The notes beneath the pieces were generated by a model. It searched no databases and had not been told where the DNA came from. It saw only the letters and a list, made by a program, of their open reading frames with translations. Positions 14,428 through 58,317 of a DNA stretch of 58,317 nucleotides are shown in pieces. Position 1 is the stretch's first letter. Every line of letters begins with the position of its first letter. A program made the translations under genes and the position numbers. The DNA comes from an uncultured Bacilli bacterium (GTDB lineage: Bacteria; Bacillota_I; Bacilli_A; RF39; UBA660). The stretch covers positions 1 to 58,317 of the forward strand of contig CANQJR010000002.1 of NCBI GenBank assembly GCA_947624275.1, given 5' to 3'.

Positions 14428-14629
14428 ATAAAAAAGACTATTCATCCAATATAAGGACGAACAGTCTCGCGGTACCACCTTAATTCATAGTTAAACTATG
14501 CACTCAAACTCTTAACGCGAAAAAACGATTTGCTCCTCGTGGAACAAGTTCATGAATCTATACCACCAGTTTCCACCAACCACTGGCTCTCTATCAATAA
14601 TCAATTCATTACTACTCTCCACAGCAATT
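14428..14629 (-). promoter_or_regulatory. T-box riboswitch leader, Leu specifier (CUU)
   Basis: All elements lie on the minus strand. There is an AGUA S-turn element, an AGAGAG bulge and a distal CCAGUGGUUGGUGGAAACUGG. GAA-CUU-G sits in the specifier position (CUU at 14546-14548). The T-box sequence is AAUUAAGGUGGUACCGCG (14469-14486). The terminator AGACUGUUCGUCC..GGAUGAAUAGUCU is followed by U6. Confidence 0.85.
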
Positions 14630-34166: not shown

Positions 34167-35798
34167 TCATTTCTTTTGCCCATTTTGGGAAATTTCATCA
34201 ACTTCTTTTTGATAATGATATTTGACTAAATAATCTATTTCATATCTCTTCGTGCTACTTGTATCAAAACCGCGCTTAAAACGGAAATCTTTCACTATGT
34301 CACTTCCCGTCACATTTAAATATAAATCAACAATTATTTTATCATCGCTTTTATCAATCCAAATTTGATCTATTAAGAGCTTATCAATGTCATCGAGTAT
34401 CTCCTTAGACGACATTCTTTTCGCCAAAGCGTTCTCAACTCTTTCTAAATCTAAATCTTGACTGTGATCTCGGACTATTTCTTTCTCTTTCGTGTTCAAT
34501 TCTTCTCGCTTTTTTAATAGTTCCTCATCCGTTATAATACCATTTAAATTCAATTCTAAAAGATGATTCTTTTTAACTTGGATCTCTTTTAAAGGTTCAG
34601 AGATATCTTCATCAACATTATCCAGATAGATATCTAATAGGGTTTTGATCAATTGCTTTTTAGAAAGAAAAACATCACTCACTGCTGAAATGATGACTTT
34701 TAGTTCACTCTCTCTAACTTTAGGACTGTCACAAAATCTTTTACCACTAGTCAAATACTTGGAACAGACCCAAGTCATATCGCTCTTTTTTTTTCGAAAA
34801 TGGCGCTTATAAAATGGCTTATGACAGTGGGCACAGTATATTTTACCATTATAGATATCAGAATCGACATTTTTGGTGCGCTCATTTCGTCTACTATGGC
34901 TTTTCTGATGAGCTAAATCCCAAGTTTGTTCTGTGATGATCGGTGGTATTTTTTGAACATCCTCATAAACGATCCATTCTTCTTCAGGCAAATGTTTTAC
35001 TCTTTTAGTCATATAATCGACGACTTCTACTTTTTTTCCACAATAATAACCTTTATATTTAGGATTTTTAATGATTCTCGATATCGATGTAGAAGACCAA
35101 TTCTTGTTTTGCCTAGTCTTAATGCCATCATAATTCAGTCTTCGACTTATGGCATTGAAAGATAGATCATCAATTATGTACATATCATATATCTTCTTGA
35201 TGACTGTTGCCTCTTCTTCAATTATTTTAAGATTTCCTGTGACACGATCTTTCTTATATCCATAAAGCATATCATTTCCTAAAATGTGACCATTTTCTTG
35301 GGAACGATGCATACCAAACTTCACTCGCTCAGATAACCTCCTAACCTCGTCTTGAGCAAGAGAAGCCATTATAGTAAGTCTTAGCTCACTGTCTGGCAAA
35401 AAGGTATTTATGTTGTCATTTAAGAAGAAGACTGCCACGCCACGATTCAACAATTCACGCGTGTATTTGATACTATCAAGAGTATTTCTAGAAAAGCGCG
35501 AAATCTCTTTAGTGATTATCAAATCAAATTTATTTTTTTTACTATCCGCAATCATGCGCATAAAGTTTTCTCGTCTGACGTCACTAGTACCAGTTATTCC
35601 TTCATCGACATACCCTTCGACATATTGCCAATTGCTGTTATCTTTGATCATTTTTTCAAAATGTTCATTTTGATTATTGAGCGATTGAATTTGTTCTAAG
35701 TGATCTGTTGAAACTCTAGAATAGTAAGTGACCCGCAATTCTAAATCTTTTAGATTATATCCCATATTTAATTTTTGTCGCATTTCTAATAGATCCAT
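34167..35798 (-). CDS. Large serine recombinase (island 1 integrase)
   Basis: Resolvase catalytic domain (YSRVSTDHLEQ, DLIITKEISRFSRN), recombinase domain, Cys-rich zinc beta-ribbon (C.HC...C) and a long C-terminal coiled-coil-like region. Confidence 0.9.
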   Translation of the reverse strand: MDLLEMRQKLNMGYNLKDLELRVTYYSRVSTDHLEQIQSLNNQNEHFEKMIKDNSNWQYVEGYVDEGITGTSDVRRENFMRMIADSKKNKFDLIITKEISRFSRNTLDSIKYTRELLNRGVAVFFLNDNINTFLPDSELRLTIMASLAQDEVRRLSERVKFGMHRSQENGHILGNDMLYGYKKDRVTGNLKIIEEEATVIKKIYDMYIIDDLSFNAISRRLNYDGIKTRQNKNWSSTSISRIIKNPKYKGYYCGKKVEVVDYMTKRVKHLPEEEWIVYEDVQKIPPIITEQTWDLAHQKSHSRRNERTKNVDSDIYNGKIYCAHCHKPFYKRHFRKKKSDMTWVCSKYLTSGKRFCDSPKVRESELKVIISAVSDVFLSKKQLIKTLLDIYLDNVDEDISEPLKEIQVKKNHLLELNLNGIITDEELLKKREELNTKEKEIVRDHSQDLDLERVENALAKRMSSKEILDDIDKLLIDQIWIDKSDDKIIVDLYLNVTGSDIVKDFRFKRGFDTSSTKRYEIDYLVKYHYQKEVDEISQNGQKK

Positions 35799-36059
35799 GT
35801 CATTCACTTCTCCGCCAGATTTCTCTCTCCGCTTTCCGATATAAATAATAGGATATATAAGATTCGTCATATAGGTCTTTATTTAGAATTAAGAGGAGCT
35901 GATAATAAATATTTTTATTCATAGTACATCATATGTCAAAAAAAGTTATTTCATCAAAAGATTATGATTTATTATTGTAAACATCAATTATTAGTTTTAA
36001 TTTTTGAAGTGATATTGCACTTTAAACAATTTTTAGCGTTTTCGTATTGTAACACTGAG

Positions 36060-39038: not shown

Positions 39039-40124
39039 TTAATAATGGTTTATCTCCAATTGTTTATCTAAAGAGATAATTTTAATTTTCTTTATTTTTT
39101 CTTGAACGAAATGCTCTTTGAAAGAAGAAGTCTCATTGGCAATGTTTAAGTATTTATCTAAATACCTATGACTCACACTTTTAAAATCACAATTATGATT
39201 ATGACAGATGTAATTTATGTAACATTTGCCATGGAAATAAGTCCTTTTAGTCGCCATTCTTTGGTGACAGAGGCACTCCAATTTATTTGAATAATATGCA
39301 TCGCTTTTTGTGCGCAAACGATTTTGCAATTTCTCTCTCACTTCATAATATTGCTTTTCATCAATTATTTGTGTATGTCTTCCAACTGTTTCAAAGTAAT
39401 GATTAGTATTTATTCCATATCGCACTTTACCAATGTAATTGGGATTGGTCAAAATATTAATAATGTTTTTAGTCGTCCATTGTCTGTTCTTTTTGGTGTG
39501 AACCTTTTGACCATTCAGTTTTTTAGCTATGTCTGTAATACTAGTACCATTCAAATACATGGCAAAAATGTCTTTCACTATTTTGCTCTCTGATCGTTCA
39601 ACGGTTTGAACTTTTTCGCCTTTAGAACGACTATAACCATAAGAGGGAGTAGAACTGCACAAGCTATAACCTTCTCGCACCTTTCTCTCCAAACCAACTT
39701 TGATTCTCTCCACGATGGTCTCACGTTCAAATTCGGCAAATAAACCGATTATTTTGACAAACATTCTCCCCGCTGGTGAAGCAGTATCAATTGCTTCAGT
39801 CAATGAATTAAAAGCACAATTACAAGCTTGAAACAATTCGATCAAATCGATTAAATCCTTAGTCGATCTAGTCAGACGATCTATTTTATAGACCAAAACG
39901 TTATTGACTTGGGAACTCTTGACATCAGCAATCAATCTTTGAACTTCGCTCCTGTTCAAATTTTTACCACTTATACCTTCATCAATATATATGTCATAAA
40001 TTTCCCATTCTTTTATTTTGGCATAACTCATCAGTTTTTCTCTTTGAGCTCGTACTGAATAGCCATGCTTAGCCTGTTCCTCAGTAGAAACTCTAATATA
40101 TATACCAGTTTTAAAATCACTCAT
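39039..40124 (-). CDS. Serine recombinase, short form (island 2 integrase)
   Basis: 361 aa. GIYIRVSTEEQ catalytic Ser, VYKIDRLTRS, a recombinase domain and a Cys/His-rich ribbon (CLCHQ...CYINYICHNHNC), with very little sequence after it. Confidence 0.9.
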   Translation of the reverse strand: MSDFKTGIYIRVSTEEQAKHGYSVRAQREKLMSYAKIKEWEIYDIYIDEGISGKNLNRSEVQRLIADVKSSQVNNVLVYKIDRLTRSTKDLIDLIELFQACNCAFNSLTEAIDTASPAGRMFVKIIGLFAEFERETIVERIKVGLERKVREGYSLCSSTPSYGYSRSKGEKVQTVERSESKIVKDIFAMYLNGTSITDIAKKLNGQKVHTKKNRQWTTKNIINILTNPNYIGKVRYGINTNHYFETVGRHTQIIDEKQYYEVREKLQNRLRTKSDAYYSNKLECLCHQRMATKRTYFHGKCYINYICHNHNCDFKSVSHRYLDKYLNIANETSSFKEHFVQEKIKKIKIISLDKQLEINHY

Positions 40125-41206: not shown

Positions 41207-42475
41207 TTATTCACTTACTTTCTTTAAGCAAATAGTTAAACCGCATACACTTATTAAAGCAATAGCACAAACTACAGCATGAGTTAAAACACTATCTCCA
41301 GTAGCTGGATTAGTCTCTTCTGAAGGAACTTTTGTAAATTTAGCAGTTACTGTCATATTTTCAGCAACAGCTGCTTCAGCATTGAAAAGTTTACCTTTTG
41401 CATCAAACCATCCATCAAAAGTATATCCTTTTTTAGAAACTTTAGGGATGTCACTTTGAGCAAGTTTAGTATTTTTCTTAACTAAAACAACATTACTTTT
41501 TCCATCTACAACAAATTCAACATAGACATATTCTGTTTCTCCAGCAATTAGATTACCTTCAATTACTGTGTTCTCTGCTTCGAAAGAATTTTCTTCTTTA
41601 CCATTAGCATTATATACAGCACCTAATTCATCATCTGTATTAATAAGTTTAGAATCAGTTACTGTTACAGTGACATCTGTAACATCTTTACCTTCATAAT
41701 CACTCATTAATATCAAATCACTTCTAGCACCATTAGCATTATCGAAATTATTTCTTATTTCAGAATTATTCTTTATGTCAATAGTAACGTCTGTCTTATT
41801 TCCAACGACTATAGTTCCATAATCATTTCTCATATCAGATGTTCCAACAGAATAACCTGTAAGAACACTATTATCAATAGTAACTTTATTACCTGAAGTT
41901 GCTTGTTGGCTTGAAGTTAAATCAAGGGCAGCATATCCAGAAAGTTCACTATCTTTAACAACTAATTCACTATCTCCACCTTGCATCCAAACTGCATATT
42001 TTGCTTGAATAACAGAATCTGTAATAGTAACTTTTGTACCTTCTTTGACACCAAGTGATACTTTTACTCCTGTACCCTTAGACGTGAAAGAACTGCTATC
42101 GTCTTTTTCACCATAATAGATGGTAACGTTTGATAGAGTAAGATCTACTGCTGCTTGTGTAGAAGTAACGTCAATATATGGACTATCACCTCCAGCAAGA
42201 GAACCTGTCATAGTCAAACCACTGATACTAACTTTTGTTCCACCAGTTACTGTGAAAGTTCCATTAATTTTGGCATCGTGTCCAACGATTTCAACATCAT
42301 CTTGAATTGTGAAGTTTCCTACATATTCTTGACCTGCTTCTAATTCAATAGTTGGTGTTTGAGCTCCTAATAAACGAGTTAAAGCAGCTGCATCATCTGC
42401 TGTATCGGCATACACATTTGGCATGGCAAACATGCTCATAACAAATAGAGTTATAAAAAATAAAACTTTTTTCAT
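41207..42475 (-). CDS. Secreted parallel beta-helix surface protein with a Listeria/Bacteroides-type repeat and a C-terminal NPATG sorting signal
   Basis: Signal peptide (..PNVYA), V/T/S-rich roughly 22-aa turns (VTITDSVIQ, LVVKDSELSG, VTIDNSVLTG) and GYTFDGWFD. NPATG is followed by a hydrophobic segment and KKVSE. Confidence 0.75.
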   Translation of the reverse strand: MKKVLFFITLFVMSMFAMPNVYADTADDAAALTRLLGAQTPTIELEAGQEYVGNFTIQDDVEIVGHDAKINGTFTVTGGTKVSISGLTMTGSLAGGDSPYIDVTSTQAAVDLTLSNVTIYYGEKDDSSSFTSKGTGVKVSLGVKEGTKVTITDSVIQAKYAVWMQGGDSELVVKDSELSGYAALDLTSSQQATSGNKVTIDNSVLTGYSVGTSDMRNDYGTIVVGNKTDVTIDIKNNSEIRNNFDNANGARSDLILMSDYEGKDVTDVTVTVTDSKLINTDDELGAVYNANGKEENSFEAENTVIEGNLIAGETEYVYVEFVVDGKSNVVLVKKNTKLAQSDIPKVSKKGYTFDGWFDAKGKLFNAEAAVAENMTVTAKFTKVPSEETNPATGDSVLTHAVVCAIALISVCGLTICLKKVSE

Positions 42476-42548
42476 GTTATCCTCTTCCTTTCTCATAAAC
42501 AAATAATAAGTTGTTCGAGATTCCTCCTTTCTTTAATTTTTCAACTAT

Positions 42549-42580
42549 ATAATAACATCCCCCCCCCCAGCCAATGTCAA
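42549..42580 (-). promoter_or_regulatory. Promoter with a homopolymeric G10 tract in the -35/-10 spacer
   Basis: On the minus strand: TTGACA, ttggct, G10, aTGt, TATTAT. The present spacer is 20 nt. Confidence 0.65.
42559..42568. repeat. C10/G10 homopolymer
   Basis: Ten consecutive C on the plus strand in an AT-rich intergenic region. Confidence 0.95.
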
Positions 42581-42650
42581 CCCATTTGAGATGAATATTC
42601 GAGTAATTTGACAATATCTCTGTCTTTTTTGATAATGTGAGGAGTTAATC

Positions 42651-42676
42651 CCAAAATAAAAAGAGTCTAACTCTTT
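42651..42676 (-). terminator. Terminator after the sortase gene
   Basis: AAAGAGT tag ACTCTTT (the loop is the stop codon), followed by TTATTTT. Confidence 0.6.
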
Positions 42677-43251
42677 CTACTCAACATTAAAATCAGATAT
42701 TTATCTTTATGTTTTTGACTACAAGTGATTAAGAATAGATTACTGCGACGATCAGTTAAAATGGAAATGCCATCGTTTTTAGCAATCTCTACAATATCAT
42801 ATACCTCATACACATACTTATTGTTTTGATAATAGAGATAGGCCAAATCGCTTTCTTGCATTTTGACTAGATCATTAAAATATGATTGTTTGCCTGTCCC
42901 TGAATGGGCCGCAATGTAGATGTTGCCCTCTTCATCAGGATGAACTGAGCCCTTTAAAATAGTGACATTTTTATCGATATTATTATCGGGATCATCAATG
43001 CTTAAGATTCCCTTTTTCAAGTTGATTTTAGGCAGTTCTAAAACCAATTCATAGTTTATTATTGGTGATTTAGACACTTCTTTTTTCAAATTGGGAGTAT
43101 CATCTATTTCTTTCACCTCATAAATGATACTTTTCTCCTCAATCAATCGCTGTTGTTCATCTCTATACCTAATGATGAAAATATTTAATAACTGTAAGAG
43201 AATGAGTGCTGCCAATACGACTATTGCTACTCTAATGACATTTTTTAACAT
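42667..43251 (-). CDS. Sortase (class not assigned)
   Basis: N-terminal TM, IAAHSG (catalytic His region), LITCS (TLxTC Cys) and a late Arg. It overlaps the adhesin gene by 20 nt. Confidence 0.8.
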   Translation of the reverse strand: MLKNVIRVAIVVLAALILLQLLNIFIIRYRDEQQRLIEEKSIIYEVKEIDDTPNLKKEVSKSPIINYELVLELPKINLKKGILSIDDPDNNIDKNVTILKGSVHPDEEGNIYIAAHSGTGKQSYFNDLVKMQESDLAYLYYQNNKYVYEVYDIVEIAKNDGISILTDRRSNLFLITCSQKHKDKYLILMLSRKS

Positions 43252-44716
43252 ACATCAAAATACATCCTAAAAGAGCTATCGATGTCATGATCAAATCAAA
43301 AGCGATATCATTTGTGCTGTGTTGATAAGTATCAGGTACTTTTAAATCATTTAAATAGTATTCGATCAGATTGGGACTCTTTTCATCAATGGTTATTTTA
43401 AAGTCATCCACTTTGGCATAACCATCTGTCGTATTTACTTGATGAAGTGTGTAACTGCCGTATGGCAAATCGAATTCAACTGTCCCATATTCATCAGTCG
43501 TAACTTCTTGATAGATCTCTCCTCGGGAATCAATTATTTGAAAAGTGATGTTTTTCTCAACTATTTTTTTATCATTTTCAGATTCAAAAAATTTATGAAG
43601 TTTTACTTTCTTCTCAATGACTTTATTATTTAAAACGATTTCTACTACTTTATTATCGCTATCAATAGTAACATCATAAGTTTCATCATCGACTTCATAA
43701 CCCTTGCCACTACTTTTCTCTTTTATCTTATATTTACCATATTTCAAATTGGATAGACTGCCCGTGTTATCTTCAGAGATTTCTATTTCCCCGACCAAAT
43801 TACCACCTTCGTCAAAGACCTCATAAATAGCTCCTATTAAACTGCCTTCACCACGTGGTACTGTCGAATTATTATCCTGGTCTAACTTAATGATTTTAAT
43901 TTCACCGCTATCAACGATTACATTTAAATTGGAAGTGATGGTATCATAACTCCCCACTGTCAAAACATTTTGATAAGTATCACTTATATAAACGATGGGT
44001 ACACTGTTATAAGTAGTATCCTTTTTTAATAATTTTATATCGATATCTTCCTTATTTTCATGACTATTAATCAATAGTTTATTATCACTTATCACGACAT
44101 CTATATCATCATTTTTGACTACTTCATAATCTTTTAAAACATTATTTTCATCCACTAATGTCAAAGATGAGGTGATAGACATGTCATAAGTTTTATTTAT
44201 GAATGACGGTTGGACATCATGATTATTTACCAAATTATCGAGTTCCTGCATCTCTTTTTCAAATTTAGTAACTTTTTTACCTTTAAATGTATCAGTCCAA
44301 TAAAAATCAGCTTTTGTATCAATCGTTTTCCAAATCATGATTTGGGTAATTGAATACCATTTATCCGCTGTATGATTCTTATAACCATAACCGTAGTAGG
44401 CCAAAAGGCTAATCCTTTTCCATTTAGCTTTAGACATGGATAATAGTTTCTCGTAATTGGCATCATATCCCGTGTAATTGGTATTTTCTGCCAAATTGAC
44501 AAAAGGTTCAATGCAATAGATTATCTTTTTATCAGAAGAACGGCGCATAAATCTGGCCTGTCGATAAGAAGTAGAACCATTTTTAGTCTTCGCATAGTAA
44601 AGATTATCTATGTCTTCAGACACGACAAATTTATCAGTATAACTCTTAGCAAAAACATCTGTTTTAAGACCCATAAATAATGATAGTATCATCAATAGTA
44701 ATATTAACTTCTTCAT
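43232..44716 (-). CDS. Thioester-domain (TED) adhesin with two SpaA/Cna-B-like domains and a C-terminal anchor
   Basis: Signal peptide, YCIEP (Cys68) and TQIMIW (Gln125), matching the TED Cys...TQxA(I/V)W pattern. Two G.Y.L.E......GY domains. C-terminal VPDTY, a hydrophobic segment, then KKCH. Confidence 0.7.
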   Translation of the reverse strand: MKKLILLLMILSLFMGLKTDVFAKSYTDKFVVSEDIDNLYYAKTKNGSTSYRQARFMRRSSDKKIIYCIEPFVNLAENTNYTGYDANYEKLLSMSKAKWKRISLLAYYGYGYKNHTADKWYSITQIMIWKTIDTKADFYWTDTFKGKKVTKFEKEMQELDNLVNNHDVQPSFINKTYDMSITSSLTLVDENNVLKDYEVVKNDDIDVVISDNKLLINSHENKEDIDIKLLKKDTTYNSVPIVYISDTYQNVLTVGSYDTITSNLNVIVDSGEIKIIKLDQDNNSTVPRGEGSLIGAIYEVFDEGGNLVGEIEISEDNTGSLSNLKYGKYKIKEKSSGKGYEVDDETYDVTIDSDNKVVEIVLNNKVIEKKVKLHKFFESENDKKIVEKNITFQIIDSRGEIYQEVTTDEYGTVEFDLPYGSYTLHQVNTTDGYAKVDDFKITIDEKSPNLIEYYLNDLKVPDTYQHSTNDIAFDLIMTSIALLGCILMYVKKCH

Positions 44717-57955: not shown

Positions 57956-57968
57956 CAAAAAAAAATTA

Positions 57969-58070
57969 TTGGCAATGACCTATTTTCGCATACACTATCG
58001 TCGGCACTTGAGAGCTTAACTTCTGTGTTCGGGATGGGAACAGGTGTACCCTCTCAGTCATAATCACCAA
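57969..58070 (-). rRNA. rrf: 5S ribosomal RNA (short, about 102 nt)
   Basis: The reverse complement reads UUGGUGAUUAUGAC...CCUGUUCCCAUCCCGAACACAGAAGUUAAGCUC...GGUCAUUGCCAA, with terminal helix pairing. Confidence 0.9.
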
Positions 58071-58138
58071 TAAAATAGAGAGAAAATAATTCTCTGAAAA
58101 CTAAGATAATGTGTCGATCCAATCAAATTAACAATTAT

Positions 58139-58317
<179 letters not shown>

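Follow-up and report, generated by a model that had tools for sequence, protein, structure and literature searches.

In Neisseria meningitidis, the porA promoter carries about 9-11 G between its -35 and -10 elements, and the spacing around the 17-nt optimum gives high, medium or no expression (PMC7864442). The tp0126 gene of Treponema pallidum, which encodes an OmpW homologue, has a poly-G tract between -35 and -10; transcription is best with a 17-nt spacer, and tracts of different length occur within single isolates as well as between isolates (PMC7864442). The tracts of Treponema tprE, tprG, tprJ and tprL lie elsewhere in the promoter and act in a different way, and the poly-C tract of Neisseria opc covers the -35 element (PMC7864442). 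In mycoplasmas, the poly-A tract of M. hyorhinis vlp and the (TA)n repeat of M. mycoides Vmm are in the promoter spacer and turn the expression of a variable surface protein on or off (PMC10502178). For the sortase-dependent pili of Bifidobacterium breve, a G tract changes by replication slippage, and populations of different tract lengths shift in vivo (PMC9187656).

Here we describe a run of ten G (G10) in the promoter spacer of a gene for a secreted, probably sortase-anchored beta-helix protein. The run is in a contig of an uncultured Bacilli bacterium, and the whole stretch that was analysed (58,317 nt, 34.8% GC) is called the window. Similar to porA, it is a G homopolymer strictly within the sigma-70-type spacer of a surface protein gene, and similar to tp0126, it is a poly-G tract between -35 and -10. 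Unlike porA, which is an outer-membrane porin gene of a Gram-negative pathogen and was shown by experiment to be controlled in this way, the gene in the window is from a Gram-positive-type gut bacterium, its product is a putative wall-anchored beta-helix protein, and the case is built from sequence. The host of tp0126 also differs, being a spirochaete, and its target is an outer-membrane protein. With vlp and Vmm the locus shares a host among the Bacilli in the broad sense, an AT-rich genome and a spacer repeat before a surface protein gene, and two of its homologues have exactly the Vmm-type (TA)n spacer. However, the mycoplasmas are wall-less, their targets are lipoproteins, the vlp homopolymer is poly-A and not poly-G, and the genes are unrelated in sequence. 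B. breve is likewise a gut bacterium with a G tract and a sortase-dependent surface structure, but it is a high-GC actinobacterium and its tract is intragenic, acting by frameshift (translational on/off) and not in a promoter spacer. In the AT-rich genome of Campylobacter jejuni, a Gram-negative bacterium, the rare poly-G or poly-C tracts of at least 8 mark phase-variable genes for surface structures and are mostly intragenic.

Two precedents had been proposed for this locus in an earlier note made from the DNA. The poly-A tract of M. hyorhinis vlp is an apt one, whereas the poly-C tract of opc covers the -35 element, so that porA and tp0126 are closer (PMC7864442). Judged by its sequence-level features, which are a slippery repeat, the position of this repeat, polymorphism between strains and a surface target, the locus would belong to the same mechanistic class as porA, tp0126, vlp and Vmm. 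To our knowledge, repeats in promoter spacers are a textbook form of phase variation that has been documented almost wholly in Gram-negative pathogens, spirochaetes and wall-less mycoplasmas, and for gut commensals most work on phase variation has concerned invertible promoters and intragenic tracts. In the literature covered, which was incomplete and leaves absence unproven, no promoter-spacer poly-G switch was described, either for this protein family or for gut Firmicutes/Bacilli with a cell wall. The locus is very probably a known kind of switch in a group for which it had not been described before, namely uncultured wall-bearing gut Bacilli, where it would stand before a sortase-type surface protein gene.

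The promoter and its surface module in the window

The promoter was read directly on the minus strand. The features of the promoter and of the adjoining genes are as follows.

43232..44716, minus strand: thioester-domain/SpaA-fold adhesin-like protein, first gene of the surface module (Pfam TED and SpaA)
42667..43251, minus strand: sortase of 194 aa, directly upstream and not under the G-tract promoter (PF04203, 1.8e-16; TIGR01076 above cutoff)
42654..42682, minus strand: terminator-like hairpin with a U-run (-13.3 kcal/mol, z = -2.2)
42575..42580, minus strand: -35 hexamer TTGACA (direct reading)
42555..42574, minus strand: whole spacer of 20 nt, ttggct + G10 + atgt (direct reading)
42569-42574, minus strand: 5' part of the spacer, ttggct (direct reading)
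42559..42568, minus strand: G10 homopolymer, the proposed slippage-prone element of the spacer (direct reading; C10 on the plus strand)
42555-42558, minus strand: aTGt, with the TG at 42557-42556
42549..42554, minus strand: -10 hexamer TATTAT (direct reading)
42476..42548, minus strand: predicted 5' leader of 73 nt, with a Shine-Dalgarno-like GGAAGAGG at 42488-42481, 5 nt 5' of the ATG
41207..42475, minus strand: gene of the 422-aa secreted beta-helix protein, the putative target of control (Pfam/NCBIfam matches, AlphaFold, family alignment)

The minus-strand module runs from the TED/SpaA adhesin-like gene through the sortase, the hairpin, the G-tract promoter and the leader to the 422-aa gene. 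The order of the adhesin, sortase and beta-helix genes is syntenic in a relative that is represented by two contigs, L033 and L034. At the level of the sequence consensus, the repeat lies between the two hexamers (TTGACA, 20 nt, TATTAT). The TG at 42557-42556 makes an extended -10 element, TGnTATTAT, and TG-n-TATTAT is also found in L033/L034. The distance from the end of the -10 hexamer to the ATG (42475) is 74 nt. The earlier note had given this same anatomy, and its coordinates and counts were exact when the sequence was read again; its arithmetic also held, as the spacer is 20 nt at G10 and would be 17 nt after loss of three G (G7). It had further noticed no comparable G or C run elsewhere, and G10 is indeed the only G or C run of at least 7 in the 58,317 bases of the window. 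From the base composition, about 0.004 G or C runs of at least 10 would be expected in the window. The pattern TTGAC-N1-8-G7+-N0-12-TATWAT has one match in the window and none in 100 dinucleotide-preserving shuffles of it. The 5' leader had no match in Rfam, and its RNA fold was not significant (z = 0.13).

Several other elements around the tract were considered and rejected. At G10, no other -10/-35 pairing with 17 nt is acceptable, for the hexamer 17 nt away, TGTTAT, is without the essential A2, and the remaining -10 candidates would have spacers of 23-25 nt. A G-quadruplex was rejected because only one G run is present. On the plus strand, a promoter-like site at 42608-42636 (TTGACA-17-GATAAT, 11/12 matches) is antisense into the sortase gene and directed away from the G-tract promoter. 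It is not conserved in the syntenic relative L033 and is probably a chance match. The TGTCAA of this plus-strand site and the -35 TTGACA form an inverted hexamer pair, 27 nt apart (42613-42575).

The terminator-like hairpin straddles the stop codon of the sortase gene, and a comparable hairpin is 3' of the sortase gene in L033. The hairpin would insulate the 422-aa gene, and therefore this gene would need a promoter of its own. No class-specific NCBIfam model scored the sortase itself above its cutoff. The thioester adhesin ends with VPDTY, a TM segment and KKCH, in this order (43232-43350, minus strand).

The 422-aa protein begins with a signal peptide, MKKVLFFITLFVMSMFAMPNVYA, and has an InlB-B-repeat/Flg_new domain C-terminal to a predicted right-handed beta-helix. 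The AlphaFold model (pLDDT 85.3, pTM 0.81) has stacked short strands at residues ~40-310. With this model, Foldseek found tailspikes, the AlgE4 epimerase and polysaccharide lyases/hydrolases, all of them weak matches (E 4e-4 and above, TM-scores 0.2-0.4). The beta-helix region matched no Pfam beta-helix family, and the matches in Pfam, NCBIfam and PDB sequences cover the B-repeat only. The model predicts the right-handed beta-helix with confidence. An exact look-up of the protein, with the 422-aa and 431-aa start variants, gave no match; the copy in the database is a 429-aa call from the window itself.

At the C-terminus (41207-41330, minus strand), the protein has an NPATG motif, then a hydrophobic/TM segment and then a KK tail. 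Across the family the sorting motif is mostly NPxT[G/S/L/A/I]D (alignment columns 495-537), and two homologues differ (NPNALD and VPKTG). We take the NPATG-type motif to resemble the NPxTG signals known for class B sortases. The earlier note had called the protein a sortase substrate. The signal peptide, the TM segment, the KK tail and the adjoining sortase agree with this, but the motif is NPATG and not a canonical LPXTG. We infer, with good reason, that the protein is a sortase substrate with a non-LPXTG signal, and because the motif is only NPxTG-like, we do not treat this as a demonstrated fact.

Homologous promoters and tract length

The protein family is small, with 13 clusters at E <= 1e-10 among 5.8 billion proteins. 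It is known from NCBI, ENA and Logan data only; the NCBI genomes are labelled as uncultured Bacilli, and their MAG names point to rabbit gut ('Lapin'). Scans of JGI metagenomes with the DNA pattern and with the family profile were both empty. Two promoter patterns had no match in the IMG/VR viral data, and therefore there is no sign of a phage-borne module. For eight further lineages, the DNA was fetched and the region upstream of each homologous gene was read. The promoters are given below, with the protein identity to the window.

L033/L034 (61%, syntenic): TTGACA-cgacc-G9-aaTGt-TATTAT, spacer 19 nt
L004 (52%, 3' of an HTH gene): TTGACG-t-G9-...-TATAAT, spacer 18 nt
L045-L048 (52%, close relative of L004, four samples): G10, the rest as in L004, spacer 19 nt
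L038 (47%): TTGACG-c-G8-...-TATAAT, spacer 16 nt
L037 (54%): TTGACA-agctat-G7-a-TATAAT, spacer 14 nt
L039/L040 (44%, between smpB and infC): TTGACA-atacgt-G11-t-GATAAT, spacer 18 nt
L043 (47%): TTGAC-(TA)11-...-TATAAT, repeat at L043:1215-1236, spacer 17 nt
L044 (47%): TTGACA-(AT)9-...-TATAAT, repeat at L044:1703-1720, spacer 15 nt
L035/L036 (55%, repeat absent): TTGACA-17 nt-TATAAT, spacer 17 nt

TTGAC(A/G/T) was kept at the equivalent position in all the homologous promoters (9/9), and the -10 hexamer of the homologues is TATAAT, GATAAT or TATTAT. An uninterrupted tract of G7-G11 is in the equivalent spacer down to 44% protein identity and across differing gene neighbourhoods, and most of the homologues are not beside a sortase operon. 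In 109 kb of non-redundant DNA from nine lineages (22-35% GC), all six G or C runs of at least 7 are in this spacer, and TA repeats of at least 9 units in the 109 kb of related DNA are confined to this promoter position. The promoter pattern matched none of 28 unrelated Flg_new loci. Thus a slippery repeat is conserved at an exact position across a diverged family.

In several homologues the -10 hexamer is only ~25 nt 5' of the ATG, with AGGAG directly after it. This compact layout leaves no room for another promoter, which argues that the hexamers are the promoter of the family. The repeat-less homologue, with TTGACA-17 nt-TATAAT at the equivalent position, argues for the same. Moreover, the hexamers stay conserved in nine lineages while their upstream flanks diverge. 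The hexamers are therefore probably the promoter in use.

The predicted spacers in the family are 14, 15, 16, 17, 17, 18, 18, 19, 19, 19, 20, 20 and 21 nt. Such scatter around the 17-nt optimum would be expected for a wandering repeat. In a crude neighbour-joining tree of the proteins, without support values, the two TA-type promoters do not group as sisters, one protein (P0009) pairs with the G10-bearing P0005 (66% identity), and the gene without a repeat falls within the poly-G genes. Given these positions of the TA types and of the repeat-less gene, it seems to be the presence of a repeat, and not a particular sequence, that is retained. This suggests that the type of repeat turns over, and that having some slippery repeat at this position is kept.

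Same-lineage copies of the promoter were found by an exact look-up of the sortase, which gave three metagenome contigs from three other samples whose intergenic regions match the window.

L002: G9, 2 mismatches in 2193 nt against the window
L003: G10, identical to the window; the contig stops 6 nt past the tract
L001: G11, 99.1% identical to the window; the contig stops 9 nt past the tract

The four copies of the window lineage thus have G9, G10, G10 and G11 at 99.1-100% flank identity, so the length is polymorphic between near-identical sequences. Furthermore, L004 has G9 and L045 has G10 at 95% DNA identity. The earlier note had pointed to related genomes as a place to look for changes in tract length. 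The tract lengths vary in the window lineage and between L004 and L045, but the consensus tract is uniform in other lineages: all four samples of L045-L048 have G10, G9 is shared by L033 and L034, which are 98.2% identical (1.8% divergence), and G11 by L039 and L040. These comparisons are between assembly consensus sequences, several of them from low-coverage Illumina data (about 2-7x), where an error of one base at G9-G11 is possible in each contig.

The spacers of the window lineage are 19-21 nt, so that all four copies are away from 17 nt. This would mean that in the sampled guts the gene is mostly off, or else that the real optimum, promoter or mechanism differs from the one that we propose. 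Four contigs break at or beside the tract: L001 stops 9 nt past it and L003 6 nt past it, and the first bases of L041 and L042 are already within it. These breaks are compatible with heterogeneity of the tract, and equally with low coverage or with read errors at poly-G.

Some further features of the related loci were observed. The contigs of the four samples L045-L048 begin at an identical base, 224 nt upstream of the gene, which suggests a repeat or a mobile-element boundary. L004, a relative of L045-L048, has a different upstream neighbour, a gene for an HTH protein. The related-species loci with a homologous gene are more AT-rich than the window (22-29% GC vs 34.8%). At L039:5310-6961, the precomputed Pfam matches put Rho_N on the ribosomal proteins L20 and S2; these would be unusual fusions or extensions.

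Explanations for the G tract

We consider it likely that the G10 tract is a spacing switch, that is, a contingency element in the spacer of a sigma-A-type promoter. Slipped-strand mispairing in replication would add or remove G's, and with each change of length, the -35 (TTGACA) and the -10 (TGnTATTAT) would come to stand at another distance and in another rotational phase to each other. Cells of one clone would then differ in their protein levels, by on/off or by volume control. With G10 and a 20-nt spacer, the copy in the window is predicted to be weak or off, with some basal activity possible via the extended -10. The predicted optimum is G7 (17 nt), and the productive range would be G6-G8. 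Through the extended -10, the promoter could in part escape control by the -35 spacing, and because the extended -10 may leave basal activity, volume control is as likely as a strict on/off switch. The length of the tract would thereby control transcription, and switching may be frequent and reversible within a population. This is what the earlier note had proposed as a candidate, and the proposal is strengthened by the polymorphism, the conserved position of the repeat, the repeat-less homologue with its 17 nt and the uniqueness of the tract in 109 kb. We do not put the spacing switch higher than likely because the data are at the consensus level, the tracts are uniform in some lineages, contigs break at the tract, and no copy of the window lineage is near 17 nt.

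The uniform lineages could also be explained by a static tract, which would be a fixed weak promoter tuning or a structural or spacer element, with the differences between lineages arising by slow ordinary divergence. The shared consensus lengths in the four L045-lineage samples, in L033/L034 and in L039/L040 are in line with this. But the window lineage has 9, 10, 10 and 11 G among sequences that are 99-100% identical, and tracts of 7-11 G put the spacers anywhere from 14 to 21 nt, without a shared 'tuned' value. Uninterrupted G runs in genomes of 22-35% GC survive at this site only, and in two homologues (TA)n replaces poly-G, which makes little sense unless a slippery repeat is selected for. 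A static tract is therefore unlikely. Another way to read the polymorphism is that the tract does vary but acts otherwise than by the -35/-10 spacing, either by shifting or altering a regulator site or through DNA melting or structure. The window-lineage spacers, all far from 17 nt, would suit such a route, as would an extended -10 that may not require a -35, and the TGTCAA-N27-TTGACA inverted hexamer pair is just upstream (42613-42575). There are also precedents in Neisseria opc and Treponema tprL (PMC7864442). Nevertheless, in every case the repeat sits wholly inside the interval from a near-consensus -35 to a -10, and in the homologue without a repeat the hexamers are exactly 17 nt apart. 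Conservation between lineages does not extend to the upstream sequences, and therefore no shared operator is visible. We regard a route other than spacing as quite improbable.

It could further be argued that TTGACA and TATTAT are chance matches, that the gene is transcribed from another promoter or by read-through from the TED-sortase operon, and that the tract is in a transcribed leader or has no function. AT-rich DNA is indeed rich in promoter-like matches (23 in 3 kb vs 14 expected). However, the hexamers are conserved in nine lineages whose flanks have diverged, most homologues are away from any sortase operon, and the terminator-like hairpin lies before the promoter. Moreover, a scan for promoter-like sites found no further one on the minus strand from the hairpin to the ATG. 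Another promoter is thus very improbable. An artefact of sequencing or assembly might be suspected, since poly-G is error-prone on Illumina and L001, L003, L041 and L042 break at or beside the tract. It is effectively refuted, since >15 independent assemblies that differ in sample and pipeline (NCBI MAGs, ENA and Logan) all have the tract, each time at this one promoter position.

The spacing switch may also be part of a wider pattern, although we lean slightly against it and put it forward tentatively. The gene family could serve a clade of uncultured, AT-rich walled gut Bacilli as a dedicated contingency cassette, which carries its own slippery promoter into new contexts, with selection acting on mutability itself and not on any sequence. 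Among nine lineages, poly-G and (TA)n would then have been exchanged at least twice and the repeat lost once, and the sampled populations would be mostly off the optimum (low or off). If this cassette reading is true, it would imply a strong fluctuating counter-selection on the beta-helix protein, which might for instance be a phage receptor or be targeted by IgA. The same promoter position with poly-G of 7-11, (TA)n or no repeat would be a compact natural experiment on selection for mutability. The order TTGAC, slippery repeat, TATAAT may serve as a search rule for contingency loci in MAGs, where slippery-spacer sites tend to break assemblies.

Genomic context of the window

The window is a chromosomal contig, with leuS, ligA, pcrA, phosphoketolase, RNase R, tsaD and rRNA genes. 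No match to MutS or MutL was found in two sets of ten ORFs of the window, one of them made up of large ORFs, and as the window is only a part of the genome, this negative is uninformative. Two large serine recombinase genes, at 34167-35870 and 39039-40124 (both minus strand), are at most 8 kb downstream of the surface module. The second encodes 361 aa only, without a match to the zinc-ribbon domain, and may be truncated. L033 likewise has a large serine recombinase, beyond ABC transporter genes. The recombinases may be remnants of an element that was integrated beside the surface module. A T-box leader is upstream of leuS (14450-14628, minus strand). At the end of the contig there are a 5S rRNA gene (57967-58071, minus strand) and the 3'-terminal 181 nt of a 23S rRNA gene (58137-58317, minus strand), and therefore the contig stops inside an rRNA operon.
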